Shown here piece after piece: positions 737 to 22,409 of a DNA stretch of 22,409 nt (the stretch's first letter is position 1; every line of letters starts with the position of its first letter). The position numbers and the translations under genes were made by a program. This stretch comes from an uncultured Candidatus Rokubacteria bacterium (GTDB taxonomy: Bacteria; Methylomirabilota; Methylomirabilia; Rokubacteriales; CSP1-6). Where the stretch lies: contig CAVVEU010000042.1 of the NCBI GenBank assembly GCA_963747235.1, positions 1 through 22,409 on the forward strand. The letters are read 5' to 3'. Below the pieces are notes generated by a model that saw nothing but the letters and a program-made list of their open reading frames with translations, was not told the origin of the DNA and made no database searches.

Positions 737-1930
737 ATGATGCGAAGTGTGAGGTGGATCGTCCTCACTGTCGCCGTACTCGTCGCACCGCTCGGCGCGG
801 TCTCGGCCCAGCCTGTGATGAGCCCGAGCCAGGACCCGCTCGCGGGGTCGCAGGTGTTCGGCTCAAAGGGTTGCGTCAAGTGCCACTCGGTGAACGGGGT
901 CGGCGGCAAGGTGGCGCCCGATCTCGCCCGCACGATGAGGCCGCGCTCGTTCGTCGATCTGGCGACCGCGATGTGGAACCACCTTCCGCGCATGACGGAC
1001 CGGATGAAGCAGCTCGGCATTGCCCGGCCGCAGCTCGACTCCAAGGAGGCCGGCGACCTGGTCGGCTTCCTCTACACGTTGAACTACTTCGACGCCCCGG
1101 GTAATGCCGACGCCGGGAAGCGCGTCTTCTCCGAGAAGCACTGCATCACCTGCCATACCGTGCGCGGCACGGGCGGGGTGGTGGGGCCGAACCTGGATCA
1201 CCTCCGGCAATTCGGCTCACCCATCTTCGTGGCGTCGGCGATGTGGAACCACGGGCCCCAGATGGCGGAGAAGATGAAGGAGCGGGGGATCGACCGCCCC
1301 ACCTTCACGGCGAAGGAGCTGCGCGATCTCAGCGCATATCTGGCCCCCGCCACCGGGGGGCCCGAGGAAGGGCCGCTCTACGTGCTGCCGGGGCGGCCCG
1401 AGTCCGGGCGGCAGCTCTTCGCGGAGAAGCGCTGCATCGAGTGCCACGCGGTGGGTGGTGCGGGTGGCCGCGTGGGACCGGATCTGGTCGAGCGCGGTCT
1501 ACGGGAGAGCCCGATGGAGTTCGCGGCGACGATCTGGAACAAGGCGCCCGCCATGGCCGCGGTCATGCAATCCAAGGGAATCAGCGTCCCCCAGCTGGCC
1601 CCCGAGCAGATGGCCGACATCGTCGCCTACCTGTATTCGGTCCGCTACTTCGCGAGCGGCAACGTGCAGCAGGGATACAGCGTGGCGAGCCAGAAGGGCT
1701 GCTTGAACTGCCACGTGCTTCGCGGCGAGCGCGGCAAGCCCGCCAGTGACTTGACGAAGGTGAAAGGGCTGGACTCACCGGCCGCGGCGCTGGCCGCCCT
1801 GTGGAACCACGCGCTGGTGACGCCCACCGTTGCCGGGAAGAAGCTGGACTGGCCGGTCTTCGCATCTCGAGAGATGGCCGACCTCCTCGCGATGCTCCAG
1901 TCCGTCAGCCAGTCGCAAAAAGCCCGCTGA
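737..1930 (+). CDS. Periplasmic tetraheme cytochrome c made of four tandem class I-like domains
   Basis: GAAAGGG RBS before ATG 737; signal peptide ending AVSA-Q; CVKCH, CITCH, CIECH, CLNCH; each domain repeats GxxxFxxKxCxxCH...GPDL...WN(H/K)xPxM. Confidence 0.92.
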   Translation: MMRSVRWIVLTVAVLVAPLGAVSAQPVMSPSQDPLAGSQVFGSKGCVKCHSVNGVGGKVAPDLARTMRPRSFVDLATAMWNHLPRMTDRMKQLGIARPQLDSKEAGDLVGFLYTLNYFDAPGNADAGKRVFSEKHCITCHTVRGTGGVVGPNLDHLRQFGSPIFVASAMWNHGPQMAEKMKERGIDRPTFTAKELRDLSAYLAPATGGPEEGPLYVLPGRPESGRQLFAEKRCIECHAVGGAGGRVGPDLVERGLRESPMEFAATIWNKAPAMAAVMQSKGISVPQLAPEQMADIVAYLYSVRYFASGNVQQGYSVASQKGCLNCHVLRGERGKPASDLTKVKGLDSPAAALAALWNHALVTPTVAGKKLDWPVFASREMADLLAMLQSVSQSQKAR

Positions 1931-1938
1931 TCCGTGAG

Positions 1939-3206
1939 ATGACCGGACTCGGTCTCGCGGGAGCGCTGCTCCTTGCGGTCGTGCTGTGGCCTTCCCAGGT
2001 GGGGGCCCAGGCGCGCGGACGCGTGCGCCGCCTGTCACCTCGAGACCGGGGACGAGCGGCTGGCCGCTCCCGCCAGGAATTTCGACGGGGACATCCACAA
2101 GGCGAAAGGCTTCGGCTGCGTGGACTGCCACGGCGGTGACAGCCGGGCGACCGGCATGGAGGCCATGGATCCCCGCAAGGGCTTCATCGGCAAGATCTCG
2201 CGCCCGCAGATGACCCAGGTCTGCGGCCGGTGCCACTCCGACGCCGGCTTCATGAAGCGCTACAATCCCTCGCTGCGCGTGGACCAGGTGGCCGAATACG
2301 CGACCTCGGTCCACGGCCGGCGGCTCAGAGAGCTGGGCGATCCGAAGGTGGCGACCTGCGCGAGCTGCCACCCGCCCCATGCGATTCGACCGCGGTCCGA
2401 TCCGAAGTCGAGCGTTCATCCGGTCCGCGTCGCCGACACCTGCGCCCGCTGCCACGCCGACGCGAAGTACATGGCGAGCTACAAGATCCCGACCGATCAG
2501 CTCGAGAAGTACAAGAGCAGCGTCCACTGGGCCGCGATGACGGCCAAGGGCGACCTCTCCGCGCCCACGTGCAACAGCTGCCACGGCAATCACGGCGCCG
2601 TGCCACCCGGGGTGAACTGGGTGGGCAACGTGTGCGGGCAATGCCACAGCCGTGCAGGCCGACCTGTTCAAGTCGAGCGTCCACGCCAAGGCGTTCACCG
2701 AGATGGGGACACCGGGCTGCGCGACGTGCCACGAGAACCACGCGATCCGCGCGCCCGGCGACTTCATGCTGGGGCTCGGAGACAAGGCGGTCTGCGGCAC
2801 CTGCCACGGTCCCGACGACAAGGGGGGCAAGAGTGCCGTCGAGATGCAGGCGCGGATCAGTTCGCTCCGGACCGAGCTGGAGAAGGCCGACGCCCTCCTG
2901 CTGCGGGCCGAGCGGGCGGGCATGGAGGTCAGCCAGGCCCAGTTCGATCTGAACGGAGCCCGGGACGACCTGATCAAGGCGCGCGCGGCCGTCCACGCCT
3001 TCAAGGTCGACGCGGTGAAGCAGGCGGTCGAGCCCGGGCTTGCGGTGAGCGCCAAGGCCCACGCCCGCGGGCTGCGCGCGCTGGAAGAGCTCGGGTTCCG
3101 GCGCAAGGGGCTCGCGGTGTCGCTGGTCGTGATCTTCGCCCTGATCGCGGGCCTGGTGGTGAAGATCCGGCAGCTCGATCGCCCCAGGGAGGCTTCCCAT
3201 GACTGA
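1939..3206 (+). CDS. Nonaheme cytochrome c with C-terminal membrane anchor (2 apparent frameshifts)
   Basis: Signal peptide MTGLGLAGALLLAVVLWPSQVGA; +1 shifts near 2015 and 2651; CAACH, CVDCH, CGRCH, CASCH, CARCH, CNSCH, CGQCH, CATCH, CGTCH; repeated (Y/F)xxSVH; helical stalk then TM GLAVSLVVIFALIAGLVV. Confidence 0.88.
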
Positions 3207-3655
3207 GCACGTGCTGGAGCCCGACGAGAGCCGCCGGGGATTCATCAACTGGTTCCTCGGGACCAGTGCGGTGGCGTTCGTCCTCTCCGTCTTCTATCCG
3301 GTGGCCAGCTACCTGGTGCCGCCCACGGTCGGGGAGTCCACCGCGGGCACCGTGACGCTGCCCATCAAGCCCGACGACGTGAAGCCCAATACGGGACAGA
3401 TCTTCAAGTTCGGAAGCCGCCCCGGCGATCCTGATCCGGACCTCGGCCGGTGATCTCCGGGCATTCTCCGCCGTCTGCACCCATCTCAACTGCACCGTGC
3501 AGTACCGGTCGGATCTCAGCGAGATCTGGTGCGCCTGCCACAACGGCCACTACGACCTGAACGGCAAGAATGTCGCGGGCCCGCCGCCCCGGCCGCTGGA
3601 CACGTTCGTGGTCAATGTCCGGGGGACCCAGATCGTGGTCAGCAAGAGCGCGTGA
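3199..3655 (+). CDS. qcrA: Rieske [2Fe-2S] subunit of a Rieske/cytochrome b complex (1 apparent frameshift)
   Basis: Tat motif SRRGFI plus TM helix; +1 shift near 3427, then CTHLNC and [10 protein letters not shown] boxes and GPPPRPL; stop TGA 3653-3655. Confidence 0.92.
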
Positions 3656-3657
3656 CG

Positions 3658-4755
3658 ATGGAGGCCGGCGAGCCGCGACACGGCAGGCTCTGGATGTGGC
3701 TCGACCAGCGGGTCGGGCTCAAGGACCTGGAGAAGCTCGCCCGGAAGAAGGAGATCCCGGTCCATCGGCACAGCATCTGGTACTACCTGGGCGGCATGAC
3801 CCTCTTCCTCTTCATCATCCAGGTGTCGACCGGCATCCTGCTGCTGCTCTACTACCGCCCGAGCGCGGAGGAGGCCTTCGAGTCGATCCAGTTCCTGATG
3901 GCCGAGGTCCAGTTCGGCTGGCTCATCCGCTCGATCCACTCCTGGGCGGCCAACCTCATGATCCTCACCCTCTTCGTGCATCTCTTCAGCGTGCTGCTGC
4001 TCAAGGCGTACCGGCCGCCGCGGGAGATCACGTGGTTCTCCGGCATGGCGCTGCTGGGCCTGGCCCTCGGCTTCGGGTTCACGGGCTACCTGCTGCCGTG
4101 GAACGAGCTCGCGTACTTCGCGACCAAGGTGGGCACCGAGATCACGAGCGCCGTTCCCGGGATCGGAGGGTTCGCGGGCCGGCTGCTCCGCGGCGGCGAC
4201 GAGGTGACCGGGGCGACGCTGACGCGCTTCTACGGGATCCACGTCGCGATCCTGCCCGCGACCGCGGTCGCCCTCCTGGGGCTGCACCTGTACCTGGTGC
4301 AGCGACACGGGATGAGCGTGCCGCCCGGCGTCGAGCGGAAGGGCGGGGCGGCGCGCGTGATGCCGTTCGTCCCGAACTTCCTGCTGCGCGACATCGTGGG
4401 CTGGCTCTCGGCGCTCGCGGTCCTGGCCGCGCTCGCCGCGTACTTCCCGGCGGAGCTCGGCCGGAAGGCGGATCCGTTCCTGCCCGCCCCGGCCGGGATC
4501 AAGCCCGAGTGGTACTTCATGTTCATGTTCCAGACGCTGAAGTACCTGCCGAGCCACATCCTCGGCATCGAGGGGGAGATCGTGGGCATTCTCGGCTTCG
4601 GACTGGGCGGCCTCTTCCTCCTGCTCATCCCCCTCCTCGACCGCCGGACCGCGCGGGGCCAGCCGAGCCGTCTGTTCACCTGGATCGGGATCGCGATCAT
4701 CCTGTACATGGTGCTGTTCACCGTTCTCGGCTACATGGCGAGCGCGACCAAGTGA
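3658..4755 (+). CDS. qcrB: Cytochrome b of a Rieske/cytochrome b complex (b6-like N-half fused to subunit IV-like C-half)
   Basis: [40 protein letters not shown]...LH, and the Qo motif PEWY; ATG 3658 lies directly after the Rieske stop. Confidence 0.95.
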
Positions 4756-5383
4756 TCCACCGGCGCCCGGGTCCGTTCCTGCTCGGGATCGGCGCTCGTC
4801 CTCGCCGGGATCGGCGCGGGGATCGGGACCGCGGCGGAGGCTCCCGGGGACGCGGAGCGCGGGCAGGCGGTCTTCGCGGCCAAGCAGTGCGTGCGCTGCC
4901 ATGCTTCCCGGGGCCAGCCGAGCGTGGGGCCGGCCATCGAGGAGCTGAGACGGCCGCAGGGCGCCTACGAGCTGGCGGGCCGCTTCTGGAACCACGCCCC
5001 CGCCATGTTCACGACCTTGATGCGGGAGGGGATCGCGTGGCCGGAGATCAGTCCCGCGGAGATGGCCGATCTGATGGCGTATCTCCAGGCGGATGCGTCG
5101 CGGGACCCGGCCCCCGACCTCTCCCAGGGGCACATCCTCCTCGTCAGGAAAGGATGTCTCAAGTGCCATCGCTATCGAGGTGAAGGCGGCAAGATCGCCG
5201 AGGAGCTGACGCAGTACCATCCCGGTTACCAGTCTGCCGTGACCGTGGGCGGGCGCGGTCTGGAAGCACGCCCCTCGCATGGCCGAGGAGGCCCGGCGGA
5301 TGGGGGTGTCATACCCTCGCTTCACGGGCGAGGAGATGGGGAACCTGGTCGGGCTCCTTCGGAGCACCGCCAAGGCGCCGTGA
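4752..5383 (+). CDS. Periplasmic diheme cytochrome c, same domain type as the tetraheme (2 apparent frameshifts)
   Basis: GTG overlaps the cytochrome b stop; +1 shifts near 4790 and 5245; CVRCH...FWNHAPAM and CLKCH...VWKHAPRM; ends RSTAKAP-TGA at 5381-5383. Confidence 0.85.
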
Positions 5384-5408
5384 CCAACGAAGCCAGGAGG
5401 AACCTACG

Positions 5409-5775
5409 ATGTCCTATCGACCATGGATGTTCGCGCTCGTGATCGCGGCCACGCTCGGCGTCGTGGCGGTCTCGTCAGGGACCGCGTCGGCGCAGGTCAA
5501 GCCGCCCGCCGACTTCAAGTTCGAGAGCCGGCAAGGACAGCCCCGGGCCGGTGACCTTCAGCCACGAGGAGCACAAGGAGAAGGTCGGCGGGTGCACGGC
5601 GTGCCACGTCAAGATCTTCAAGATGAAGAAGGGGGCGGACGCGCCGTTCACGATGGAGAGGATGAAGAACGGGCAGCTGTGCGGGACCTGCCACAACGGC
5701 ACGACCGAGGTCAAGGGGAAGGTGGTTTTCGCCGCGACCGACAAGGCCAACTGCGAGAAGTGTCACAGGAAGTGA
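5409..5775 (+). CDS. Small c7-type triheme periplasmic cytochrome (1 apparent frameshift)
   Basis: AGGAGG RBS; signal peptide ending ASA-Q; +1 shift near 5530; VTFSHEEH, CTACH, MERMKNGQLCGTCH, CEKCH match the c(7)-type triheme domain pattern. Confidence 0.87.
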
Positions 5776-6707
5776 CCGACCCCGAGGAGTCCCCGGCCAC
5801 GCGCCGGCGGGTCTACCGCTGGCGCGCGGTCTGGATCGTCCTCGCGATCGCGGCGGTCGTCGGCGGCGGCGTGCTGACGAGCCTCTGGCACGTCAGCGCG
5901 AGCCCGCAGTTCTGCAACTCGTGCCACATCATGCGCCCCTACGTCGAGGCCTGGAAGGTGTCCAAGCACAGCCAGGTCGCCTGCGTGCAGTGTCACTATC
6001 CCCCCGGTCTGCGCGACACGCTCTGGGTGAAGTTCCAGGCCATCAGCCAGGTCGCCAAGTGGGCGACGCAGACCTACAACTCGAAGCCGTTTGCGGTCGT
6101 GGAAGACGCCAGCTGCTTCCGCTCGGGCTGTCACTCCGGGGCCCAGCTCGAGAGCCGGGGCGTGCTCACCTTCGGGCGGGGCGTGCGCTTCGATCACCGC
6201 CCCCACCTCCAATCGGCGATGATGGGCCGGCAGTTGCGCTGCACGAGCTGTCATTCGCAGATCGTCGTGGGAAAGCACTTCGAGGTCACGACGTCCACCT
6301 GTTTCACCTGCCACTTCAAGGGGACGAAGGACGGCCGGGACCTCGCTCCGGTCGCGGGTTGCACCGGTTGCCACGAGCTCCCCAAGGGGGACATCGCCGT
6401 GAGCTCGATCCGGTTCAACCACGCCCAGATCGTGCAGCGGGGCGTGTCGTGCGAGAAGTGTCACCTCAACGTGGTCGAGGGAAGCGGGGAGGTGCCGCGG
6501 GAGCGTTGTTTCACCTGCCACAACCAGCAGGAGAAGCTCGACCGGTATACCGACCGGGCGCTGCTGCACTCGGTTCACGTCACCGAGCGCACCATCACCT
6601 GCACCCGGTGTCACACCGAGATCAAGCACCGGCTGCCACCGCCGGTCGGCGCGCCAACGGCGCAAGGCGAGCGCGGGGCGCTCCTGGCCACGCCGGGACG
6701 CCGATGA
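5772..6707 (+). CDS. Membrane-anchored multiheme cytochrome c with NapC/NirT/NrfH-like N-terminus (9 heme motifs)
   Basis: GTG overlaps the previous stop; N-terminal TM helix; FCNSCHIM (CxxCHxM), CVQCH, CFRSGCH (CX4CH), CTSCH, CFTCH, CTGCH, CEKCH, CFTCH, CTRCH. Confidence 0.9.
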   Translation: MTDPEESPATRRRVYRWRAVWIVLAIAAVVGGGVLTSLWHVSASPQFCNSCHIMRPYVEAWKVSKHSQVACVQCHYPPGLRDTLWVKFQAISQVAKWATQTYNSKPFAVVEDASCFRSGCHSGAQLESRGVLTFGRGVRFDHRPHLQSAMMGRQLRCTSCHSQIVVGKHFEVTTSTCFTCHFKGTKDGRDLAPVAGCTGCHELPKGDIAVSSIRFNHAQIVQRGVSCEKCHLNVVEGSGEVPRERCFTCHNQQEKLDRYTDRALLHSVHVTERTITCTRCHTEIKHRLPPPVGAPTAQGERGALLATPGRR

Positions 6708-8011
6708 TCCGGGCGGCGCTGCTTCTGGCACTACTGGGGCTCACCCTCGCGGGGCCGGGCCCCGCACGGGCGCAGGGGCCCGGCACGCCGCCCGCGCCTC
6801 CGGCATCGCAGCACACCGGCGAGCTCGATTGCCGTCAGTGCCACCAGGGCAACCACCAGGGCGTGGTCGGCATGTACCTCGGGATGGGTGGGCGGGGCAC
6901 CCCCATGATCCCCAGCCACATGTTCCAGGTGCGGGTGCAGTGCGTCGCCTGCCACATCGTGCCCAAGGAGGACCAGGGGTCGGCGGCGCTCGTCGGGCGG
7001 ACCTTCAGGCCCACCGAGCAGGCCTGCGTGAATTGCCACGGCGAGAAGTATCGCGGCATGCTCCAGCGGTGGGTGGACACCCTCGCCAAGATGCGCGAGA
7101 TCCTCTCCCCGAAGCTGTCCGCGGCGCGGGCCGCCCTGACCGGGGCGGGCGGCCCGACCCCGAAGCAGGCGCGCGCCCAGCGGCTGACGAACGACGCCGA
7201 GTACAACATGCAGTTCGTCGCGCTCGGCAAGGGAGTCCACAACGTCTTCTACGCGGCGGACCTGCTCAAGCTCTCCAACGGCTGGCTCGATGAGGCGCTG
7301 CCGCTCCTGGGGAAGCCACCCCTCAAGAGCGACGACGCCCTGGTCCGGGGTGGCTACTGTGCCGTGCTCTGCCACTCGACCGCCGGGGTGAGGCAGTCGG
7401 AGATCGTGACCTACGGCAAGCAGCGGATCCCTCACATCCGGCACGTCACCGAGTTCGGCGCCGTGTGCACCGCCTGCCACTCGGCCGAGGTGCACAAGGC
7501 GGTCACCGCGAAGCCGGCCACGTGCTCCGGCTGTCACCACAGCGCCCAGAACGAGCGCTGCGAGTCGTGCCACCGCGCCCAGAGCGCGTTCTACCGGGGG
7601 CAGGTGAGCTCGCTGGGAGTCAAGGTCGAGGCCAACGCCATGGCCGAGGCCGTGGGCTGCACCGGGTGCCACGACTGGTCGCAGAAGCACTCGCGTCAGG
7701 CGGTGGGGCAGAAGTGCGTCGGCTGCCACGACGCCGCGTACACCAGCTTCGTGGGCGAGTGGACGACCGGGCTCGACAAGAAGGCGGCGGGGGCCCGGGA
7801 GGCGCTCCGGACCGCGGAGACCGCGCTGGCCCGCGAGCGGCGGGCCGGGCGCCGGGTCCCCGACGCCGAGGCGCTCGTGCGGCAGGCCCGGGAGGCTCTA
7901 GCCCTGGTGCAGAAGGCGCGCGGCGCCCACAATCCGGCCGGCGCCGAGTCGATCCTCGAGGGGGTCCGGGCGAAAGCCGACGCGGCCGCCGCCCAGGCCC
8001 GCCAGAAGTAG
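6704..8011 (+). CDS. Periplasmic multiheme cytochrome c (9 heme motifs)
   Basis: ATGA overlap; signal peptide ending ARA-Q; CRQCH, CVACH, CVNCH, CAVLCH (CX3CH), CTACH, CSGCH, CESCH, CTGCH, CVGCH; two helical segments ending GVHN and GAHN. Confidence 0.9.
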   Translation: MIRAALLLALLGLTLAGPGPARAQGPGTPPAPPASQHTGELDCRQCHQGNHQGVVGMYLGMGGRGTPMIPSHMFQVRVQCVACHIVPKEDQGSAALVGRTFRPTEQACVNCHGEKYRGMLQRWVDTLAKMREILSPKLSAARAALTGAGGPTPKQARAQRLTNDAEYNMQFVALGKGVHNVFYAADLLKLSNGWLDEALPLLGKPPLKSDDALVRGGYCAVLCHSTAGVRQSEIVTYGKQRIPHIRHVTEFGAVCTACHSAEVHKAVTAKPATCSGCHHSAQNERCESCHRAQSAFYRGQVSSLGVKVEANAMAEAVGCTGCHDWSQKHSRQAVGQKCVGCHDAAYTSFVGEWTTGLDKKAAGAREALRTAETALARERRAGRRVPDAEALVRQAREALALVQKARGAHNPAGAESILEGVRAKADAAAAQARQK

Positions 8012-8042
8012 CTCGGCCCGGGCAGGAGGGCCCCGGTCGAGC
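8011..8042 (+). other. Intergenic hairpin (possible attenuator or mRNA processing/stability element)
   Basis: GCTCGGCC-C-GGGC / GCCC-C-GGTCGAGC stem with an AGGAGG loop immediately after the stop; no U-tract. Confidence 0.4.
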
Positions 8043-8172
8043 AGTATGGTCCAAACGGACTATTGCCACCGTGGGGCGGATCGGCTTAGACTCCGGCGCG
8101 ATTCGGGTTGTTTCGCCCTGCGTTGTCGCGACGGGCGCCGATTGCTTTCGCCGGACCGATAGGAGCGATGCT

Positions 8173-9144
8173 ATGACCCGGAGGCTGTGGCGGCTGCTCG
8201 GAGTGATCGGTGGTGGCGCCGTCGTCCTGTCCGTCGGCTTCGTCCTGGGCCTTCCCTTCTCTTCCCGGGCCCAGCAACCCGCTCAGCCCGCCACAACGGC
8301 GGCGATGCCGCCCGGCGACAACTACGTTGGCGCGGAGACCTGCAAGGGCTGCCACGAGGAAGCGTTCAACAAGTTCTCCCATACCAGGATGGGGCGTCTC
8401 TTCCTCAGGCAGCCGCGCAGTGCGAAGGAAGCCAATGCCTGCGAGAGCTGCCACGGGCCCGGCAAGGACCACGTGGATGCGGGCGGCGGCAAGGGCAAGG
8501 GGGGCATGATCACCTTCGCGAAGAACGACCCCACGCCGGTGGAGAAGCGGAACGCGGTGTGCCTGTCGTGCCACACCAAGGGCGCCCGCCTCTTCTGGCA
8601 GGGGAGCGCGCACGAGTCGCGGGATGTGGCCTGCACGAGCTGCCACAAGGTCATGGACAATGTCTCCCCGCGCCACCAGCTCGCCAAGGAGACCGTGATC
8701 GAGACCTGCGGCAGCTGCCACATCCAGAAGCGGGCCCAGACGATGCGAACCTCGCACATGCCGCTCCGCGAGGGCAAGATGACCTGCACCTCGTGCCACA
8801 ACCCGCACGGGACGGTGACGCCGGCGCTCCTCAAGGAGCCGTCGCTCAACGATACCTGCTTCACGTGCCACGCCGAGAAGCGTGGCCCCTTCCTGTGGAA
8901 TCACCCGCCGCAGATCGAGAGCTGCGCCAACTGCCACGATCCCCACGGCTCCAATCACGAGAACATGCTGAAGACGGCCAAGCCGCGGCTCTGCCAGCAG
9001 TGTCACGTCCCGACGTCGCACCCGACGAGGCCCTACGGCCGGGACACGTCATCGCTGAAGTTCGTGCTGGGGCAATCGTGCCTGACCTGTCACGTCAACA
9101 TCCACGGCTCGAATCACCCGGCCGGCTTCGCCTTCACACGGTAA
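8173..9144 (+). CDS. mtrA: MtrA/DmsE/PioA/MtoA-family decaheme cytochrome c
   Basis: AGGAG RBS at 8161; signal peptide; exactly 10 CxxCH; family motifs CESCHGPG, CHAEKRGPFLWNHPP, CHDPHGS and C-terminal IHGSNHPAG. Confidence 0.95.
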   Translation: MTRRLWRLLGVIGGGAVVLSVGFVLGLPFSSRAQQPAQPATTAAMPPGDNYVGAETCKGCHEEAFNKFSHTRMGRLFLRQPRSAKEANACESCHGPGKDHVDAGGGKGKGGMITFAKNDPTPVEKRNAVCLSCHTKGARLFWQGSAHESRDVACTSCHKVMDNVSPRHQLAKETVIETCGSCHIQKRAQTMRTSHMPLREGKMTCTSCHNPHGTVTPALLKEPSLNDTCFTCHAEKRGPFLWNHPPQIESCANCHDPHGSNHENMLKTAKPRLCQQCHVPTSHPTRPYGRDTSSLKFVLGQSCLTCHVNIHGSNHPAGFAFTR

Positions 9145-9154
9145 GGGGGCCGCC

Positions 9155-11434
9155 ATGCGAACGACGCGAACGGTACGATCCGTTCTCGCGGGGCTGCTGG
9201 TGCTCGCGGCCGCGGGAGCCGCCGCTGCCCAGACGGCCGCTCCCACCGAGACGGCCCCTCCCATCGAGATCGGCGGCTTCAGGCTCGAGGGATACGGGGA
9301 GGCCGGAGTTCGCTTCTTCCGCGAGCGCCCGACGCAGAAAGAGAGCGCCAAGTTCGAGGAGTACCGAGACATCAACCAGGGGCTCTACCTCCAGGGCCTG
9401 TGGCTGCGATTCTTCACGCCCGATGAGAAGTACTCGGGCGTGATCGGCGGCCGGCAGTGGGGGCTGCAGGACCAGGAGTACCACCTGAGCTTCGAGCGGC
9501 TGGGTCGGTGGGAGGCCGGCTTCGAGTGGGACCAGATGCGGCACATCTTCTCGACCAATGCCCGGACGCTCATGAACGAGACCAGTCGCGGGGTCTTCGC
9601 GCTGCCGAACCCGCGCCCCCCGCTCATCAATTACAACAACGGGCGGAGCATCGACGAGATCAGCGTGCGCTGGGATACGGCGCGCACGTTCCTCAAGCTC
9701 AGCTTGTCCGAGAACGCGGACCTGTTCGCCGAGTACACGCGCATCCACAAGGACGGCGAGCGGCCCTTCGGCATGGCGTTCGGCAGCCCCGGCGGCAGTG
9801 CCTTCGAGGTCCTGCAGCCCATCGAGCACACCATCCACGATTTCCGGCTGCGCGGGACCTGGGCCACCGAGCGATGGCAGCTCCAGGCCGGCTACACGAT
9901 GTCGATCTTCGTGAACGACCTCGCCTACGTACGGGCCGACAACCCCTGCAATCCCGCACCGGCCCCCGCTGCCCCGTGCCCGGCGGTGGGAAACACAGGG
10001 CAGTTCGGCACCGTCTCGCTGCCGCCGAACAACATGGCCCACACCTTCAGCCTGCAGGGCGGGGTGAACCTGCCCATGCGCACCCGCATCAGCAGCAACT
10101 TCACGTATAGCCTGAGGCTCCAGAACGACGACTTCCTGCCCCAGACGAGCACCAACAGCCTGGTCCTGTCGAACCCCAGTCTGGCTCTGCCCCAGAAGAG
10201 CCTGCACGGCAACGTCCAGACCATCCTGTTCAACCTAAACGCGACGAGCCGGCCGCTGCCGATTCCCGTCACCTTCGGGGCCAAGTACCGCCTGTACGAC
10301 CTCATCGACAACAGCGATGTCGTGAGGTTCTCCGACTTCAACATCAACGATCAGAACACCATCGCGCGCGGGCCCCATTTCTCCCAGCGGTTCAGCTACA
10401 TGCGCCAGAACGCGGACCTGGATGCCCGCTGGCAGATCGCGCGGCCCGTGGCCCTCACGCTGGGCACGGGATGGGAGCGGTGGGACCGGCCCGAGACTCG
10501 CGAGGTGCGGGTCAGCGACGAGTTCTTCGCCAAGGCCGCCCTGGACGTGACGCCCGCCGACTGGCTGATGATCCGGGCCACGTATCAGCCTTCCATCCGT
10601 CGGATCGACGAGTACAAGACGTTTGCCCTGGCCGCGGTGGAGCAGAACGCGGCCCCCGGGGAGCCGGGCCAGTCATACCTCCTGCGCAAGTACGACGAGA
10701 GCGACCGGGACCGGCAGCGCGTGGACCTCATGATGCAGATCACGCCGACCGAGACGTTGACAATCACGCCGTCGGCCAGCTACCGGTTCGACAACTACAT
10801 CGCGACGGGCCTGAAGCACGACGCCAACGGCCTTGGCCAGAATGGAGCCATGCTCGGCCTCCAGCAGGCGGTCAGCTGGTCGGCCGGGATGGACGTGAAC
10901 TGGACCCCGGTGGAGCGACTCTCCTTCGCCGCCGGGTACATGCACGAGTCCAACTTCCAGAAGCAGCGCTCTCGCAACCGGAACCCCGACGATCCGGCCC
11001 TCGACTGGATCTCGGACAATACCGACACCGTCGACACCTACCACGCCTCCGTGACGGCTCGGCTGATCCCGGGCAAGCTCGATCTCAAGTTCGCCGGCAA
11101 CTATTCCTATGCCCTGGGCCGCGTCGAGACCTGGAACCCCAACGCCAACGGCAGCACCGTCTACAACGCGGTCGCGAACACCAACCAAGTTGCCAGGCCC
11201 TGGCCGGCCTTCGAGGACAGCCTCCTGCGGCTCGAGGCCTCCCTCAGGTACCACTTCGGGCAGGTCTGGACCGCGAGCCTGAATTACGCCTACGAGTCGT
11301 TCCGCAAGCACGACTGGCGGACGGACACCATCAATCCGTTCGTCCCGGGCAACTCCGCCGTCTACCTCGGCAACGACCTGAAGAACTACGAGGCCCACAT
11401 CTTCGGCGTGACGCTCGGCTACCACTTCAAGTAG
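9155..11434 (+). CDS. mtrB: MtrB/PioB-family outer-membrane beta-barrel
   Basis: 759 aa; signal peptide; KFEEYRD near the N-terminus, LPPNNMAH, alternating beta-strand pattern, C-terminal LGYHFK; directly follows the decaheme gene. Confidence 0.93.
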   Translation: MRTTRTVRSVLAGLLVLAAAGAAAAQTAAPTETAPPIEIGGFRLEGYGEAGVRFFRERPTQKESAKFEEYRDINQGLYLQGLWLRFFTPDEKYSGVIGGRQWGLQDQEYHLSFERLGRWEAGFEWDQMRHIFSTNARTLMNETSRGVFALPNPRPPLINYNNGRSIDEISVRWDTARTFLKLSLSENADLFAEYTRIHKDGERPFGMAFGSPGGSAFEVLQPIEHTIHDFRLRGTWATERWQLQAGYTMSIFVNDLAYVRADNPCNPAPAPAAPCPAVGNTGQFGTVSLPPNNMAHTFSLQGGVNLPMRTRISSNFTYSLRLQNDDFLPQTSTNSLVLSNPSLALPQKSLHGNVQTILFNLNATSRPLPIPVTFGAKYRLYDLIDNSDVVRFSDFNINDQNTIARGPHFSQRFSYMRQNADLDARWQIARPVALTLGTGWERWDRPETREVRVSDEFFAKAALDVTPADWLMIRATYQPSIRRIDEYKTFALAAVEQNAAPGEPGQSYLLRKYDESDRDRQRVDLMMQITPTETLTITPSASYRFDNYIATGLKHDANGLGQNGAMLGLQQAVSWSAGMDVNWTPVERLSFAAGYMHESNFQKQRSRNRNPDDPALDWISDNTDTVDTYHASVTARLIPGKLDLKFAGNYSYALGRVETWNPNANGSTVYNAVANTNQVARPWPAFEDSLLRLEASLRYHFGQVWTASLNYAYESFRKHDWRTDTINPFVPGNSAVYLGNDLKNYEAHIFGVTLGYHFK

Positions 11435-11456
11435 CGGAAGCTGCGGTCTCGATCTC

Positions 11457-11493
11457 CTCGCCGCCGGATGGCTTCCGGCGGCGAGCGTGTTTC
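11457..11493 (+). terminator. Strong hairpin after mtrB, probable intrinsic terminator or stabiliser
   Basis: Perfect 12-bp stem CTCGCCGCCGGA (11457-11468) / TCCGGCGGCGAG (11474-11485), loop TGGCT, followed by a weak CGTGTTTC tail. Confidence 0.6.
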
Positions 11494-11524
11494 GCATGGC
11501 CTTCGCGTCACCACGGGGCGAGCG

Positions 11525-12370
11525 ATGAGTCGCATCAAGGAGATCAAGCGCGGCCTGGAAGCGACCGCGGAGGCGATCGAGGTCCTGGACGCGGACCTGG
11601 CGGCCGGGAGGCTCGACGGCGATGAGCACCGCCGGCGGCGGGCAGAGCACGAGCGCGAGGGGGGTCGGCTCTTCGTGAGTCTCCGCCGAGCCCAGCGCGA
11701 AGGCGAGGGGCGCCGGACCGGGCAACCGGCGGTGCCGGCGGAGCGACGGGCAGGGTGGCTCTGGAGTCCGCCGGCGATCGTCGCGCTCGGCTTGCTCTTG
11801 CTCGTTGTCGGCGTCGGCGCCGGCGTGCTGGGCGTTCGATGGCTCGGCGGGCGCCCGGGGGCCGGCGCGCCCGCCGCGGCTCCGCCGGCCCCATCCGGAA
11901 GCGGTCCGTCTGCGCTCATGAGCGACATCGAGCTCGGGGCGCTCCGGCTGGCGGCCGCGCGTGAGGACACGCCGATCCCGAGCCTGCTCCAGCTCGCGCA
12001 CGGCGCCCTGGACCAGGGTCACCTCGACGAGGCGCGCCGCGTCTACGGGCGTGTGCTCGCCCGGGAGGCCCGAAACGTGGAGGCGATCACCCACCTGGGA
12101 GCCGTTCTCAACCAGGAAGGTCGTGTCGACGAGGCTCTGGCGAAGGTGGAGGAGGCGCTCCGCATCGATCCCTCCTACATCCACGCCCACTGGGACCGCA
12201 CGCAGTACCTCTTCTATGGCAAGCGGGATTTTCCCGCGGCTGTCAAGGCCGCGGAGGCGTTCCTGCAGGTTGTGCCCAATGGGTCGGACGCCGAGAGCGT
12301 CCGCAAGCTCATGGGAGAGGCGCGGGAGCAGGCTGGCAAGCCTGGCCGCCGTCCGGGCGCCGGAGGCTGA
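11525..12370 (+). CDS. Membrane-anchored TPR protein, CcmI/CycH-like cytochrome c maturation factor
   Basis: N-terminal IEVLDADLAAGRLDGDEH resembles the CcmI cytoplasmic segment; one TM helix; Pro/Ala linker; TPR repeats (GHLDEARRVYGRVL, GRVDEALAKVEEALRIDP). Confidence 0.72.
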   Translation: MSRIKEIKRGLEATAEAIEVLDADLAAGRLDGDEHRRRRAEHEREGGRLFVSLRRAQREGEGRRTGQPAVPAERRAGWLWSPPAIVALGLLLLVVGVGAGVLGVRWLGGRPGAGAPAAAPPAPSGSGPSALMSDIELGALRLAAAREDTPIPSLLQLAHGALDQGHLDEARRVYGRVLAREARNVEAITHLGAVLNQEGRVDEALAKVEEALRIDPSYIHAHWDRTQYLFYGKRDFPAAVKAAEAFLQVVPNGSDAESVRKLMGEAREQAGKPGRRPGAGG

Positions 12371-12477
12371 GGCGCGGCAGCCTCACTGTGGCGTCAGGGC
12401 ATCACCGCTATCGGGGCTTCGTTCGCCGGCAAACCCAGTAATGTCACGAGCTTCCATCGCTTTCCACCCAGGTCACA

Positions 12478-12493
12478 CGGCATTCGGTTTGCA
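12478..12493 (+). promoter_or_regulatory. Sigma-54 (-24/-12) promoter
   Basis: CGGCATTCGGTTTGCA has GG-N10-GC with TTGCA, and ends 26 nt before ATG 12520. Confidence 0.65.
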
Positions 12494-12519
12494 TCGACCT
12501 GTTGCAAGAGGTGAGGCTC

Positions 12520-12858
12520 ATGGACTGGCCAATGGGATATGACGGCGCGGATATCCAGGCGTGGGCCGAGAGTGCGGCGAGTATATATTGGTGGCCATTG
12601 TTCGCCTGGGTTGCCGGCGCCGTGATCCTGTTCTTCTTTGCCGTCTTGGTCACCAGCTTCCCAGCGCGCCGCCGTTTCTGGTGCGAGCAGGCCGGGCGCG
12701 AGGTCGAGGTGCAGTTCGAGGAGGACGGACCGCCCGGTCTCCGGCGATTCATCGCCGTGGTGAGTTGCACTGCCTTCGAGTCCCCGACGCATGTGCAGTG
12801 CCATCGCACCTGCCTCGATCGCGACGTCCACAGTCTCGAGGCTCGGTGCCGGGCGTGA
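12520..12858 (+). CDS. Small membrane-anchored Cys-rich hypothetical protein
   Basis: GAGG RBS; TM helix WWPLFAWVAGAVILFFFAVLV; RFWC...VSCTAF...CHRTC; GTGA overlap with the next gene. Confidence 0.72.
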   Translation: MDWPMGYDGADIQAWAESAASIYWWPLFAWVAGAVILFFFAVLVTSFPARRRFWCEQAGREVEVQFEEDGPPGLRRFIAVVSCTAFESPTHVQCHRTCLDRDVHSLEARCRA

Positions 12859-13490
12859 GGAGAGCCGGCCTCTGGGTGCTGGGCGTTCTCCTCGTCCTGG
12901 TCGTGTCTTCCGGCTTTCTGGTCGGGAGTTACGCACAGACAACGCCGCTGCCGCCGGGCCATCCCCCGGTGGGCAAGGGTGAACAGGCTCCCCCGATCCC
13001 CGGACCCCCGCCTGGTAGTGGCAATGGCAGCCGGGAGCTCACGTGGATGGTGCCCTCGGGCTGGACCAAGGAGACCCCGTCGTCTCCGATGCGTCGCGCC
13101 CAGTATCGCATCCCGGGACCGGGTGGCCCCGGGGAGTGCGTGGTGTTCTATTTCGGGCCCGGGCAGGGGGGCGACGCGAAGGCGAACGCGGCTCGCTGGA
13201 CAAGTCAATTTCGGCGGCCGGACGGAAGTCCGGTGGGCGATGGCTACAAGATGCAGGAGACGAAGGTGGGCGAGCTCGCCGTCGTCTTGGTGGAGGTCGC
13301 CGGCACCTATGTGGGCGGGATGGGCGGTGGACCCGGCGGCCCTGAGCGCCCGAAGTACATGCTGCTGGGTGCGATCGCCGACGGACCCGACGCCAAGTGG
13401 TTCTTCCGGGCCACCGGCCCTCAGGCCACGCTCGAAGCGCAGCGCGCGGCCTTCAACCGCATGATCCGCTCGCTCAAGCGGTCCCCGTAG
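12855..13490 (+). CDS. Exported conserved hypothetical protein with LPPGHPP motif
   Basis: Signal peptide ending SYA-Q; LPPGHPP; WMVPSGW, SSPMRRAQY, VFYFGPGQGG, ANAARWTSQF, WFFRATGP. Confidence 0.78.
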   Translation: MRRAGLWVLGVLLVLVVSSGFLVGSYAQTTPLPPGHPPVGKGEQAPPIPGPPPGSGNGSRELTWMVPSGWTKETPSSPMRRAQYRIPGPGGPGECVVFYFGPGQGGDAKANAARWTSQFRRPDGSPVGDGYKMQETKVGELAVVLVEVAGTYVGGMGGGPGGPERPKYMLLGAIADGPDAKWFFRATGPQATLEAQRAAFNRMIRSLKRSP

Positions 13491-13512
13491 CACAGTCTCC
13501 AGTTGGTTGTCT

Positions 13513-13528
13513 CGGCACCCGGTTTGCG
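13513..13528 (+). promoter_or_regulatory. Sigma-54 (-24/-12) promoter-like motif with no clear downstream CDS
   Basis: CGGCACCCGGTTTGCG has GG-N10-GC. Confidence 0.5.
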
Positions 13529-13538
13529 CGTTGCTCCG

Positions 13539-13655
13539 ACGATGACGGAGCTGGAAAAGCAGCGGCCCGGTGGACAGGCGCGATGGCCGTCCGCCGGGCC
13601 GATGTGCGGTAGGCCTGCTTGGCCCGCTCGCGTCCCGGCAGTAGCCGGGACCTTG
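13539..13655 (+). ncRNA. Candidate structured small RNA or leader
   Basis: Starts at the position expected from the sigma-54 motif; 13-bp stem 13563-13575 / 13589-13601; perfect 8-bp stem 13632-13639 / 13644-13651. Confidence 0.3.
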
Positions 13656-13912
13656 GTACAGCGTGCCGCTCGACGAGCCCTATCGGTTGACCAAGCCCCG
13701 ATGTGTTCGTCGCGACCAGTAAACTCCGCGCGCCCTCCGCGAGCAATGAGCCTGCTGCATCAATTCCTTGGTCATGTCGGCTCATGCTCCTGACTCGCCC
13801 CCTGAGGCGGCGCCTCCCCATCTGGGGCCCCATCGCACCACGCCCCTGGTGCTCGCGGTCACGGCCCGATGGAAACCGGATGCGAATCAGCTGGTTGGAC
13901 AGCACGCTCGGT

Positions 13913-13928
13913 CGGTACCTTGCTTGCA
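13913..13928 (+). promoter_or_regulatory. Sigma-54 (-24/-12) promoter
   Basis: CGGTACCTTGCTTGCA has GG-N10-GC with TTGCA, upstream of ATG 13971. Confidence 0.55.
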
Positions 13929-13970
13929 CATTCTCCAGGCCGACCGGGTCAAACACAGGGAGACCATGGA

Positions 13971-14633
13971 ATGCCAGCAAGGAGCCGCAGGAAGGTGTCC
14001 GAGACGACGGAGCTGGCGGAGATGCTCGCCGCGACCGCCGACGGCGGCTTCGCCATCGACGCGGAGGGCCGGATCGTCCTGTGGAACCGCGCGGCGGAGC
14101 GCATGCTCGGCTACACCGTGCGCGAGACGGTTGGCCGGCGGTGCTGCGATCTGCTCATGGGTGATGACGAGAATGGCAACCGCCTCTGCTGCCGGGGCTG
14201 TCATATCGTGGACCTCGTCAAGATGCGCACCCCGGTGCACAGCTTCGACATGCGCACTCGCACGAAGACCGGGTCTGCCATCTGGGTGAACGTCAGCACG
14301 CTCCGGGTCTCGAGGGACGGAGCCGGCGACAGGACGGTTCATCTGCTTCGCGACGTGACCGCGACCCGGGAGATCCTGGCGCTCATCCGGGAGCGCCTGG
14401 CAGTCCCCGCCGCGCCCGTGCCCGCGGCTCCGGACGGCACCGGCGCGCTCACTCGCCGCGAGTTCGAGATCCTGCGCGTCATCGCGACCGGCGTCAACAC
14501 CAAGGACGCCGCCGAGCGCCTCCACGTGAGCCCGGCCACCATCCGCAACCACGTCCAAAACATCCTGGGCAAGCTCGGCGCTCACAGCCGGCTCGAGGCG
14601 GTGGCCTACGCGACCCGCAACCGCCTGATCTGA
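13971..14633 (+). CDS. PAS domain plus LuxR-type HTH transcriptional regulator
   Basis: GGGAG RBS; PAS pattern IDAEGRIVLWNRAAERMLGY; LuxR HTH LTRREFEIL...AERLHVSPATIRNHVQNILGKLGAHSRLEAV. Confidence 0.92.
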   Translation: MPARSRRKVSETTELAEMLAATADGGFAIDAEGRIVLWNRAAERMLGYTVRETVGRRCCDLLMGDDENGNRLCCRGCHIVDLVKMRTPVHSFDMRTRTKTGSAIWVNVSTLRVSRDGAGDRTVHLLRDVTATREILALIRERLAVPAAPVPAAPDGTGALTRREFEILRVIATGVNTKDAAERLHVSPATIRNHVQNILGKLGAHSRLEAVAYATRNRLI

Positions 14634-14891
14634 GCCCTCGCGGCGTTGTCACCCTCCGGAGCCGAGCGACCGCCTCCCCGTTCCGCCTCGCCGGTCCAGC
14701 GGTCGCCCTCATGTGGGTCGCGCTCGGCCAGCAGCGGCCACTTGTCAATAGCCACGACTTGGCCGGCTGCGACCATCGTGAGGCGGCCGCCGACGCCCGA
14801 GTACCCCAGTGGGGCGGAGCGTCCCCACCACCGTCCCTGCCCGGCAGCGCGAAAGTCTCCGGGAACATTGGATAACCGGCGGTCGGGCGCC

Positions 14892-14907
14892 CGGCACGCA
14901 GTTTGCC
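14892..14907 (+). promoter_or_regulatory. Sigma-54 (-24/-12) promoter of the CBS-gltA-radical SAM-nifJ operon
   Basis: CGGCACGCAGTTTGCC is a near-consensus GGCACG-N4-TTGC about 60 nt before ATG 14969. Confidence 0.65.
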
Positions 14908-14968
14908 CCGTGCCTTCTTAGTAAGTTGGTGCTCGGCGGAGTGGGACGAGATCGACGGAGGAAGGCCA

Positions 14969-21412
<6,444 letters not shown>

Positions 21413-21416
<4 letters not shown>

Positions 21417-22409
21417 TCGACCTCGTCGACGCGTACCTGGGGCTGTCCCTGCCGAACCCGCTGGTGGCCTCGGCGGGGCCCCTGTGCGAGAGCCTCGACA
21501 ACATCCGCCGATGGAGGACGCGGGGGCGGCGGCGGTGGTGCTGCACTCGCTCTTCGAGGAGCAGATCACGGTGGAGAGCTCCCACCTCGACCGCGTATCT
21601 CTCCCACGGCGCGGAGAGCTACGCGGAGGCGCGTGACCTACTTCCCGGACATGCAGAGCTACAAGATCGGCCCGGACGCGTATCTCGAGCACATCCGCCG
21701 GGCCAAGGCCGCCGTCCGGATCCCGATCATCGGCAGCCTCAACGGGATCTCCACCGGCGGCTGGACCGGCTACGCGCGCAAGATCGAGGAAGCCGGCGCC
21801 GATGCGCTCGAGCTGAACGTCTACTACATCCCCACCGACCCGGACATGACCGCCGAGGAGGTGGAGCGGCGGTACGTGGACCTGGTGCGGGATGTCAAGG
21901 CGAGCGTCCGCATCCCGGTCGCGGTCAAGCTCGGCCACAGCTTCAGCGCCCCCGCCAACCTCGCGCGCCGCCTCGACCGGGCGGGCGCCGACGCGCTGGT
22001 GCTCTTCAACCGCTTCTACCTGCCGGACTTCGATCTGGACAACCTCGAGGTCGTGCCGCACCTCACGCTGTCGAGCTCGTACGAGCTGCTGGTGCGGCTG
22101 CACTGGGTCGCCATCCTCTACGGTCACGTCCGGGCCGATCTCGCGGTCACCGGGGGCGTGCACACCGCCGCGGGACGTCCTGAAGGCCATGATGGCGGGC
22201 GCGCGGGTCGCGATGATGACCTCGGCGCTGCTCCAGCACGGCATCGAGCACCTCACGGCCGTGCGGGAAGGGCTCCTCGCCTGGATGGAAGCCCATGAGT
22301 ACGAGTCCATCCGGCAGATGCAGGGCAGCATGAGCTACCGGTCGGTTCGCGAGCCGGCCGCGTTCGAGCGGGCCAACTACATGAAGGTGCTGAGCTCCTA
22401 TGCGCTCCG
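21413..22409 (+). CDS. Dihydroorotate dehydrogenase-like flavoprotein (4 apparent frameshifts; runs off the window end)
   Basis: [72 protein letters not shown]; ATGA overlap with nifJ. Confidence 0.88.

Follow-up and report, generated by a model that had tools for sequence, protein, structure and literature searches.

A stretch of 22,409 nucleotides (nt) from an uncultured Candidatus Rokubacteria bacterium (contig CAVVEU010000042.1; the whole stretch is referred to here as the window) carries ten genes on the + strand, at 737-11434, that combine a Rieske/cytochrome b complex with several multihaem cytochromes and an MtrAB-type outer-membrane conduit. In order, these encode a tetrahaem cytochrome (g1), a nonahaem cytochrome (g2), a Rieske protein, cytochrome b, a dihaem cytochrome (g5), a c7-type trihaem cytochrome (g6), two further cytochromes (g7 and g8), MtrA and MtrB, running from the ATG of g1 at 737 to the stop codon of mtrB at 11432-11434. 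The window is 66-76% G+C, which fills lists of open reading frames (ORFs) with false frames, and genes were called using third-position G+C (GC3) together with family searches. An original prediction, made from the letters of this DNA, had given the gene content, order, strand and end coordinates of the cluster, and all of these were confirmed by the family searches and the ORF ends. The junctions from g1 through g8 measured, in order, +8, -8, +2, -4, +25, -4 and -4 nt (with the start of g5 inferred). A 161-nt gap (8012-8172) then precedes mtrA, mtrA and mtrB are spaced by 10 nt, and a further 33 nt separate mtrB from a gene encoding a tetratricopeptide repeat (TPR) protein (g11). The packing of g1-g8 is operon-like and the ten genes form one tight co-directional cluster.

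Reading each gene piece in its own frame, we counted 44 canonical CxxCH haem-binding motifs (4+9+2+3+8+8+10 in g1, g2, g5, g6, g7, g8 and MtrA). Two atypical motifs, CFRSGCH in g7 and CAVLCH in g8, are kept in the orthologues found in three related loci (L003, L005 and L001, introduced below). The total of 46 haem motifs given by the original prediction was therefore reached, but only 44 of these are canonical, the other two being the atypical motifs of g7 and g8. This density is far from chance, as 200 shuffles of 737-9144 gave a mean of 0.13 CxxCH motifs in the three + frames (maximum 2), and the remaining window (9145-22409, ~13.3 kb) held a single CxxCH in all six frames.

The mtrA-type gene (8173-9144, +) encodes a periplasmic decahaem cytochrome of 323 amino acids with 10 CxxCH motifs. 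It scored 268 bits on the DmsE/MtrA family model TIGR03508 (cutoff 192.2), placing it within that family, and matched the Protein Data Bank (PDB) chain 6r2q_A (E = 4.2e-70) over residues 52-320 (269 residues); that chain has an odd label in the PDB file, and 6R2Q is identified as the MtrAB of Shewanella baltica in the available part of PMC10654088. Directly after the decahaem gene lies that of an MtrB/PioB-type outer-membrane beta-barrel (9155-11434, +; 759 amino acids), with matches to PF11854 (5.3e-100) and to TIGR03509 (282.9 bits, cutoff 240.05). MtrB had 518 homologues, of which those with names belonged to the MtrB/PioB family, and ~50 clusters lay above 72% identity. Most named near-relatives of the cluster proteins carry Methylomirabilota or Candidatus Rokubacteria labels; for MtrB these include P0124 (90%), while P0143 (89%) is labelled Actinomycetota. 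Among the cluster readings, no match to the MtrC/OmcA model TIGR03507 was found at E ≤ 0.001 (of g7, g8 and MtrA, the best was g7 at 0.019), and the only trace of this family was a weak PF22113 match on g2 (33.1 bits, cutoff 30). Likewise, no lipobox cysteine was found in the signal peptides of the cluster proteins. Because both an MtrC/OmcA-family match and a lipoprotein signal are missing, the conduit appears to be of the MtoAB/PioAB kind and not of the Shewanella MtrCAB subtype.

The inner-membrane side of the cluster includes a Rieske 2Fe-2S subunit (3199-3655, +; ~151 amino acids), which changes frame at 3422-3426. The membrane anchor (PF25471, TM_PetC) lies in frame 0 and the Rieske domain (PF00355) in frame 1, and positions 7-55 and 88-164 of the NCBIfam PetC profile match the two pieces. 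In a search of proteins of at least 136 amino acids, all 120 relatives among the matches listed were 138-160 amino acids long, most of them with both domains. An intact relative of 151 amino acids with 97% identity (P0247) mapped to frame +1 over its residues 1-109 and to frame +2 over residues 75-151, and residues 1-76 and 75-151 of a further relative (P0263) also mapped separately onto the window. Both cluster-binding boxes, CTHLNC and CACH, are present alongside the membrane anchor, and the N-terminus contains SRRGF, which we take to be a twin-arginine motif. The gene that follows encodes a cytochrome b of 365 amino acids (3658-4755, +), in which a b6-like N-terminal half is fused to a subunit-IV-like C-terminal half (PF00033, 4e-50; PF00032, 5e-11). 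Its PDB matches included cytochrome b6 (7e-59) and, across its full length, bc1 cytochrome b. The protein has both histidine pairs (H94-x13-H108 and H195-x14-H210, the spacings of 13 and 14 being the b6 pattern) and the Qo-site PEWY motif at residue 283. More than 120 clusters of relatives at 83-98% identity were named cytochrome b6 or bc complex. Those labelled Methylomirabilota/Candidatus Rokubacteria included P0064 and P0108 (84-85%) and P0102 (85%), and a Rieske relative bearing a Methylomirabilota/Rokubacteria label (P0254) was 90% identical. Because the four haem-b histidines, PEWY and both Rieske boxes are all intact, the complex looks functional, as judged from its residues. The dihaem g5 is a candidate for its c1-equivalent subunit; the g5 gene overlaps the cytochrome b stop, and the protein resembles dihaem domains of the QcrC type (the model NF050122 is matched by g1).

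A second quinone-interacting candidate, missed by the original prediction, is encoded by g7 (5772-6707, +), a membrane-anchored NapC/NirT/NrfH-like cytochrome with an N-terminal transmembrane (TM) helix and 8 CxxCH motifs plus the conserved CFRSGCH. Its PF03264 score was 54.6 bits (cutoff 24.1), compared with 52 bits on the NrfH model TIGR03153, which is under the cutoff of 134. In the PDB, the matches were to NrfH (2j7a_C, 1.7e-6) and to 6f0k_A (1e-4) and 6lod_A (2e-4), which we take to be ACIII ActA chains. The first haem motif is CNSCHIM, conserved in L003 and L005, and the CxxCHxM pattern marks haem 1 of NrfH, at the quinol site. We classify g7 as a member of the NapC/NirT/NrfH family, which is the family of CymA; as it falls below the NrfH, NapC and TorC equivalog cutoffs, it is none of those named enzymes. 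With g7 present, the link to quinone need not pass through the Q-cycle complex.

The five remaining cytochromes are predicted carriers or anchored partners. The first gene, g1 (737-1930, +), is an intact ORF encoding a secreted tetrahaem protein of 397 amino acids, with four class-I cytochrome c domains (PF00034, 1.5e-30), 4 CxxCH motifs and a signal-peptide-like N-terminus. Its PDB sequence search gave nothing useful. L001 encodes a relative of g1, either a paralogue or an orthologue, with 64% identity, downstream of mtrB at a distance of 8 kb. Of the four g1 domains, the third (residues 244-313) scored 78.1 bits on the SoxX equivalog TIGR04485 (cutoff 61), which we read as domain resemblance only because no soxA lies nearby. 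The nonahaem g2 (1939-3206, +) starts with a signal peptide, carries a C-terminal coiled coil plus a TM anchor and is frame-broken twice, with the signal peptide in frame 0, 7 CxxCH motifs in frame 1 and 2 in frame 2. Pfam c3/c7 matches were found in both haem-bearing pieces, and a PDB sequence search with g2 returned no relative at E < 0.05. The dihaem class-I cytochrome c g5 (4752-5383, +; PF00034, 3.9e-10; 2 CxxCH) contains two frame changes, and its inferred GTG start at 4752 overlaps the stop codon of cytochrome b (GTGA). The periplasmic, PpcA-like c7-type trihaem g6 (5409-5775, +) contains one frame change, which separates its signal peptide (frame 2) from its c7 domain (frame 0; PF14522, 1.9e-15; TIGR04257, 59 bits against a cutoff of 40). 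Finally, g8 (6704-8011, +) encodes a secreted cytochrome with 8 CxxCH motifs, the conserved CAVLCH and a helical C-terminus. Whilst c7/c3 Pfam matches were found, it belongs to no named family; its closest Atlas clusters were mostly from Rokubacteria/Methylomirabilota, and no relative was found in the PDB sequence search at E < 0.03.

To place the cluster among relatives, species-representative genomes were scanned with two MtrB peptide patterns, and five of 58 stretches were confirmed as related loci (L001-L005), which are too few to give a frequency for the linkage of cytochrome b and mtrAB. An MtrA homologue precedes mtrB in all five. L001, L003 and L005 have g8 ahead of mtrA, L004 does not, and L002 has no upstream sequence. 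The order is g6-g7-g8-mtrA-mtrB in L003 and g8-mtrA-mtrB-TPR in L001. Only L005 and L004 extend far enough to show cytochrome b. In L005, the last 33 residues of cytochrome b are followed by g5-g6-g7-g8 and then by mtrA-mtrB. L004, on a 463-kb contig with a Rokubacteria label and with an MtrB 46% identical, has no cytochrome b within 9.1 kb upstream and instead has a NapC/NirT tetrahaem just upstream of mtrAB (7513-12274). The original prediction depended on conserved synteny between the two blocks, and this is only partly borne out, with the g6-g7-g8-mtrA-mtrB order in L003 and L005 and the end of cytochrome b in L005 on the one hand, and the lack of cytochrome b in L004 on the other. L005 also has four genes inserted between g8 and mtrA (3530-7013), for a dihaem and an octahaem cytochrome, a 4Fe-4S dicluster protein (PF13247) and a membrane protein of the NrfD type, which adds to this cluster another type of module predicted to interact with quinone. 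Judging by these gene neighbourhoods, mtrAB appears to be paired with different quinone modules in this group of metagenome-assembled genomes (MAGs), the Rieske/cytochrome b version being one of them.

Some further observations concern these relatives. Cytochrome b and MtrB homologues each had a single contig of 319,706 nt, from the same sources, and for each the longest contig was 9,482 nt, which is circumstantial evidence for linkage. Cross-matching of contigs between the two proteins was otherwise set aside as unreliable for short contigs; a 3,334-nt match cannot hold both genes. In L004, the other strand carries, ~4-6 kb downstream (16136-18017), a fragment of an NrfA-like cytochrome c552 and a gene resembling NrfH, and mtrB is spread over three frames, which suggests a long-read-type assembly. 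Relatives with 58-89% MtrB identity were found in MAGs labelled Verrucomicrobiia (L001, 85%), Chloroflexota, Deferrimicrobiaceae and Actinomycetota. These discordant labels reflect either mis-binning or lateral spread of the cluster; for P0143 and L001 we have taken them as binning errors.

The only sizeable gap in the cluster contains a promoter-like element (8046-8092, +), ~80-125 nt ahead of mtrA, which the original prediction missed. A palindrome, ATGGTCC-N4-GGACTAT (8046-8063), abuts a sigma-70-like TTGCCA-18-TAGACT (8063-8092). The promoter scan gave 2 matches in 13.5 kb, compared to 0.7 expected. The palindrome is unique in the window and matched in 0/100 shuffles, and a perfect palindrome occurs in L001 at 1142-1159. 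By alignment, conservation within the gap is highest at the palindrome/promoter block, which is kept in L001 and L003 and partly in L005. The element is thus probably a regulated internal promoter (operator plus promoter) for mtrAB, going by its position and conservation, and mtrAB may be transcribed with g1-g8, alone, or both. We also considered a structured RNA in the gap (8012-8172) and rejected it, as the fold z score was -0.23 and no Rfam family was found in the whole window. A Crp-family gene was seen near the palindrome locus in L001.

Four of the ten cluster genes (g2, the Rieske gene, g5 and g6) were not single ORFs and contained seven frame changes, each from f to f+1, a point absent from the original prediction. 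The frame-change sites were located at ~2012 and ~2650 in g2, 3422-3426 in the Rieske gene, ~4766-4795 and ~5222-5253 in g5, and ~5527-5543 in g6, and the GC3 frame plot changes frame at the break sites. The intact L005 orthologue of g5 mapped onto three window frames, and the intact L005 and L003 orthologues of g6 onto two. All pieces were stop-free with a GC3 of 0.79-0.97, except for a 10-codon piece of g5 that was translated one base off (4751). The same pattern was observed in nifJ (pyruvate:ferredoxin oxidoreductase; 16608-22409), whose coding sequence is scattered over five or more segments that differ in frame (POR_N 2-104; POR_N 96-230; POR; EKR and Fer4; a second Fer4), with a radical-SAM domain directly upstream in the 16608-18878 reading. 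Since nifJ is frame-broken too, the indels are window-wide and not specific to the cytochrome cluster. Given that the relatives are intact, that nifJ is broken alike and that the pieces are stop-free with high GC3, the frame breaks are most likely sequencing or assembly indel errors in the contig.

Two explanations that would take the cluster out of service, or apart, have to be weighed against this. In one, the cluster is decaying in this organism, the seven breaks are real and four of the ten genes are pseudogenes. The concentration of seven frameshifts within four genes at 1.9-5.6 kb, all in one direction, would fit this. Yet nifJ, a central metabolic gene, has at least four breaks of its own in this window, the pieces have accumulated no stops and retain their GC3, and identity to intact relatives is 70-97% on either side of the breaks, all of which makes decay improbable. 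In the other, the contig is an assembly chimera that joins a Rieske/cytochrome b block and an mtrAB block from different genomes, as might be suspected from a low-quality contig with many indels whose related loci bear conflicting labels (Verrucomicrobiia, Chloroflexota, Deferrimicrobiaceae). We consider this very improbable indeed. L005, from the end of cytochrome b through mtrB, and L003, from g6 through mtrB, show the arrangement independently; GC is even across 1-12 kb (0.655-0.724); and the sole sizeable gap is itself conserved in L001 and L003. The chimeric join that the original prediction had flagged as a risk is therefore not what we found, as L005 shows the same gene order from cytochrome b to mtrB.

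The combination of a conduit with a Q-cycle complex is not without precedent. The original prediction held that Mtr, Pio and Mto operons do not include such a complex, and this is contradicted by published clusters. In the available part of its description, the Zixibacteria RBG-1 cluster comprises MtrA, MtrB, two monohaem and several multihaem cytochromes and PetAB, and is read as a system for Fe(II) oxidation (Castelle et al. 2013, PMC3903129). Compared by that description, and not by gene order or orthology, the window has the RBG-1-type Mtr-PetAB composition: one cluster with MtrA, MtrB, mono-/class-I and multihaem cytochromes and PetAB, with no extracellular cytochrome. It differs in belonging to another phylum and in its NrfH-like member, of which the available part of the RBG-1 description makes no mention. 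Several porin-cytochrome clusters with petB and petC were likewise reported from karst MAGs in 2026 (PMC13264449, available in part). Compared by text only, these resemble the window in combining porin-cytochrome genes with those for the bc-complex cytochrome b and Fe-S protein. The same text likens the karst clusters to the PCC4 of He et al.; we rejected PCC4 as the same system, since its membrane protein is a five-helix dihaem-b protein (PMC5566968). Our literature search found no description of this cluster in Rokubacteria, with nothing in PMC6662431, PMC10386581 or PMC13425722. The window cluster thus belongs to an architecture that has been in print since 2013 and is uncharacterised, and it is not a new kind.

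The Geobacter sulfurreducens ext cluster is analogous. As given in the available part of PMC5877670, extHIJKLMNOPQS encodes a porin, 4-, 5-, 10- and 12-haem cytochromes, the Rieske protein ExtO and the cytochrome b ExtP. The window cytochrome b and g1 gave second- and third-best NCBIfam matches to ExtP and ExtS, but their scores fall short of the cutoffs (212.9 vs 290 for ExtP; 59.9 vs 100 for ExtS), and neither is a member of those families. ExtN and ExtO reached only E = 1.7e-4 and 8e-4, on g7, at ~20 bits against a cutoff of 200. Furthermore, the ExtI porin is phosphate-porin-like whereas the window encodes an MtrB-family porin, two Geobacter proteins (ExtP and ExtQ) correspond to one fused protein in the window, and the Geobacter system is linked to selenite and tellurite reduction.

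Closer likenesses for the conduit are found in MtoAB-MtoD-CymA of Sideroxydans lithotrophicus and PioABC of Rhodopseudomonas palustris, which share with the window a decahaem cytochrome, an MtrB/PioB barrel and the lack of a surface cytochrome. In a survey by Zhong and Shi (PMC6295460), cymA or mtoC is listed beside mtrAB/mtoAB, and one ImcH homologue was counted in Rokubacteria. Like cymA beside mtoAB (PMC6295460), the window places a NapC/NirT cytochrome, along with a small periplasmic carrier, in the cluster. In contrast to these systems, the window adds the Rieske/cytochrome b complex and 26 canonical haem sites (4+9+2+8 = 23 in g1, g2, g5 and g8, and 3 in g6); its carrier is a c7 trihaem, not MtoD or the HiPIP PioC; and its NapC/NirT-like protein has 8-9 haems, not 4. 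Compared with Shewanella CymA-MtrCAB, MtrA is homologous, MtrB is of the same family and g7 is NapC/NirT-like; however, the window lacks MtrC/OmcA, no Rieske/cytochrome b complex occurs in the Shewanella pathway, and the Shewanella cymA lies outside the mtr cluster (PMC6295460). Lastly, the petI operon of Acidithiobacillus ferrooxidans (cycA1-sdrA1-petA1B1C1) has a class-I multihaem (dihaem c4) beside a Rieske/cytochrome b complex that works uphill in Fe(II) oxidation (PMC10654088, available in part; PMC13741234). It serves as our working model for the inward direction, which we prefer, although in this acidophile the outer-membrane oxidase Cyc2 is encoded elsewhere and neither MtrAB nor multihaem wires are present.

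Taken together, we interpret the locus, at about even confidence, as a trans-envelope respiratory cluster of a Methylomirabilota/Rokubacteria-type bacterium that most likely takes up extracellular electrons. We infer the protein contacts, the direction of flow and the coupling to proton-motive force. In this model, the MtrA-family decahaem would sit inside the MtrB/PioB barrel in the outer membrane and receive electrons from extracellular Fe(II), or possibly Mn(II) or reduced humics. The c7 trihaem g6, the octahaem g8 and the class-I tetrahaem g1 would act as carriers in the periplasm. At the inner membrane, one module would be the Rieske/cytochrome b complex, with the c1 role taken by the dihaem g5, perhaps together with the anchored nonahaem g2, and the other would be the NrfH/CymA-like anchored g7. 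Proton-motive force would drive the Rieske/cytochrome b complex backwards to reduce quinone, whilst the class-I cytochromes would deliver the rest of the electrons to a terminal oxidase of high potential whose genes lie elsewhere. A trans-envelope electron chain, as originally proposed, remains the natural reading, with the Q-cycle complex and g7 as two possible routes to quinone.

The inward direction is a lean that rests on the literature. One reason is that the same architecture in RBG-1, which lacks surface cytochromes, was for that lack interpreted by its authors as a system for oxidising Fe(II). The other reasons concern the neighbours of PioA and PioB and the bc1 models of A. ferrooxidans and R. 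palustris. In the available part of PMC10654088, Rokubacteria proteins are the first neighbours of R. palustris PioA and PioB, at ~43% identity. Uphill bc1 is the standard model for petI, and electron delivery to bc1 has been proposed for R. palustris (PMC13741234). Several points weigh against the uptake model as a whole. Since g7 could itself connect to quinone, the Rieske/cytochrome b complex would not be needed for that link. MtrAB-type conduits work in both directions, and the window itself contains no terminal oxidase and no carbon-fixation genes. Linkage to cytochrome b outside the window is seen only at L005, through those 33 residues, and L004 has no cytochrome b over the interval given above. 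Given the promoter-like element upstream of mtrA, expression of mtrAB could be separate from that of g1-g8, and the shared direction of all seven cluster frameshifts may reflect a non-random cause. In addition, the RBG-1 authors pointed out that soluble or chelated acceptors could still be reduced in the absence of a surface cytochrome (PMC3903129, available in part).

The same parts list and tight packing would equally serve an outward flow with extra energy conservation, the first option of the original prediction. Quinol would be oxidised at the Qo site, and g5, g1, g2, g6 and g8 would relay the electrons to MtrAB, which would hand them to a high-potential acceptor outside the cell, for instance a Mn(III/IV) oxide or chelated Fe(III). 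A Q cycle would then yield 2 H+ per electron, with fewer from a CymA-type dehydrogenase. A metal reducer, Geobacter, does cluster ExtO/ExtP with a porin and multihaem cytochromes (PMC5877670, available in part), and the window cytochrome b scored 212.9 bits on the ExtP model. That score is nevertheless below the cutoff of 290, leaving the window outside the ext family, and there is no surface cytochrome for contact with minerals. The potential of a Rieske centre is above that of typical MtrA-type haems, so electrons would run downhill only to unusually oxidising acceptors. Moreover, we know of no experiment in any organism that shows a Q-cycle complex feeding an outer-membrane conduit, which also counts against outward flow, and we regard it as unlikely. 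A rather better case, still one that we think falls short, can be made for two neighbouring but independent systems. Here, g1-g2-Rieske-cytochrome b-g5 would be an ordinary complex III feeding oxidases or reductases, and g6-g7-g8-mtrAB would be a self-sufficient chain of CymA-like, PpcA-like and MtrAB components with no need of a Q-cycle complex. The NapC/NirT domain and NrfH-type CxxCHxM of g7 are consistent with this, as are the pairing of mtrAB in L004 with a NapC/NirT tetrahaem alone and the extra Fe-S and NrfD module before mtrA in L005, which implies that modules are swapped. The >120 clusters of cytochrome b relatives at 83-98% identity, against ~50 above 72% for MtrB, would fit a housekeeping role; however, cytochrome b evolves more slowly than the porin and these cluster counts are not comparable. 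The spacing of the genes also argues for a single system, in that g5 and g6 are only 25 nt apart, g6/g7 and g7/g8 overlap by 4 nt, and the one clear packing break follows g8 rather than separating g5 from g6. In addition, L005 keeps the genes from cytochrome b to g8 in this order.

A more specific and doubtful version of a single system is that the Q-cycle Rieske/cytochrome b complex is the dedicated inner-membrane partner of an MtoAB/PioAB-type conduit in Rokubacteria, a group abundant in soil and the subsurface, with the c1 role taken by a ~30-haem wire (g5, g1, g2 and g6-g8) and g7 as an uncoupled bypass. If true, electron exchange with minerals would be coupled directly to proton-motive force, conserving energy when high-potential Mn(IV) or Fe(III) is reduced or being force-driven during Fe(II) uptake, and the g7 bypass would let the cell choose its route by the potential of the outside partner. 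The step from conduit to quinone pool is the least understood in extracellular electron transfer, and in Fe(II) oxidisers the split between uphill and downhill electrons is thought to occur there. The cluster names candidate partners for this step (conduit, carriers and two quinone modules) in an uncultured and very common soil lineage, and offers a defined gene set for expression and testing. Its value is limited by the architecture having been published in 2013 and by the error-ridden copy of the sequence.

Downstream of the cluster, g11 (11468-12370, +) encodes a membrane-anchored protein with TPR Pfam matches. An orthologue (73% identity) immediately follows mtrB in L001 and is absent from that position in L002 and L003, and this weak association makes it only a possible assembly factor. 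A PAS-LuxR regulator (13869-14633, +; PF00196 plus PAS domains) is encoded 2.4 kb downstream of mtrB, and in L002 and L003 its orthologue (49-55% identity) is the first gene after mtrB, making it a candidate regulator of the cluster. Between these two genes, the TPR gene is followed by a pair of conserved ORFs without a known family, as it is in L001 (12442-13487; 5463-6484 in L001; 59% and 72% identity). They encode a small membrane protein and a secreted Pro/Gly-rich protein, and in the window the frame shifts between them. Further downstream, an ORF with a CBS pair (14876-15397) overlaps, in a different frame, the start of the long citrate synthase ORF (14876-16734 region); this could be an indel-broken fusion or two separate genes. 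Upstream of the cluster (1-600), the coding frame wanders in the GC3 plot through a gene of the DUF411 family (PF04214), members of which have been described as metal-binding.

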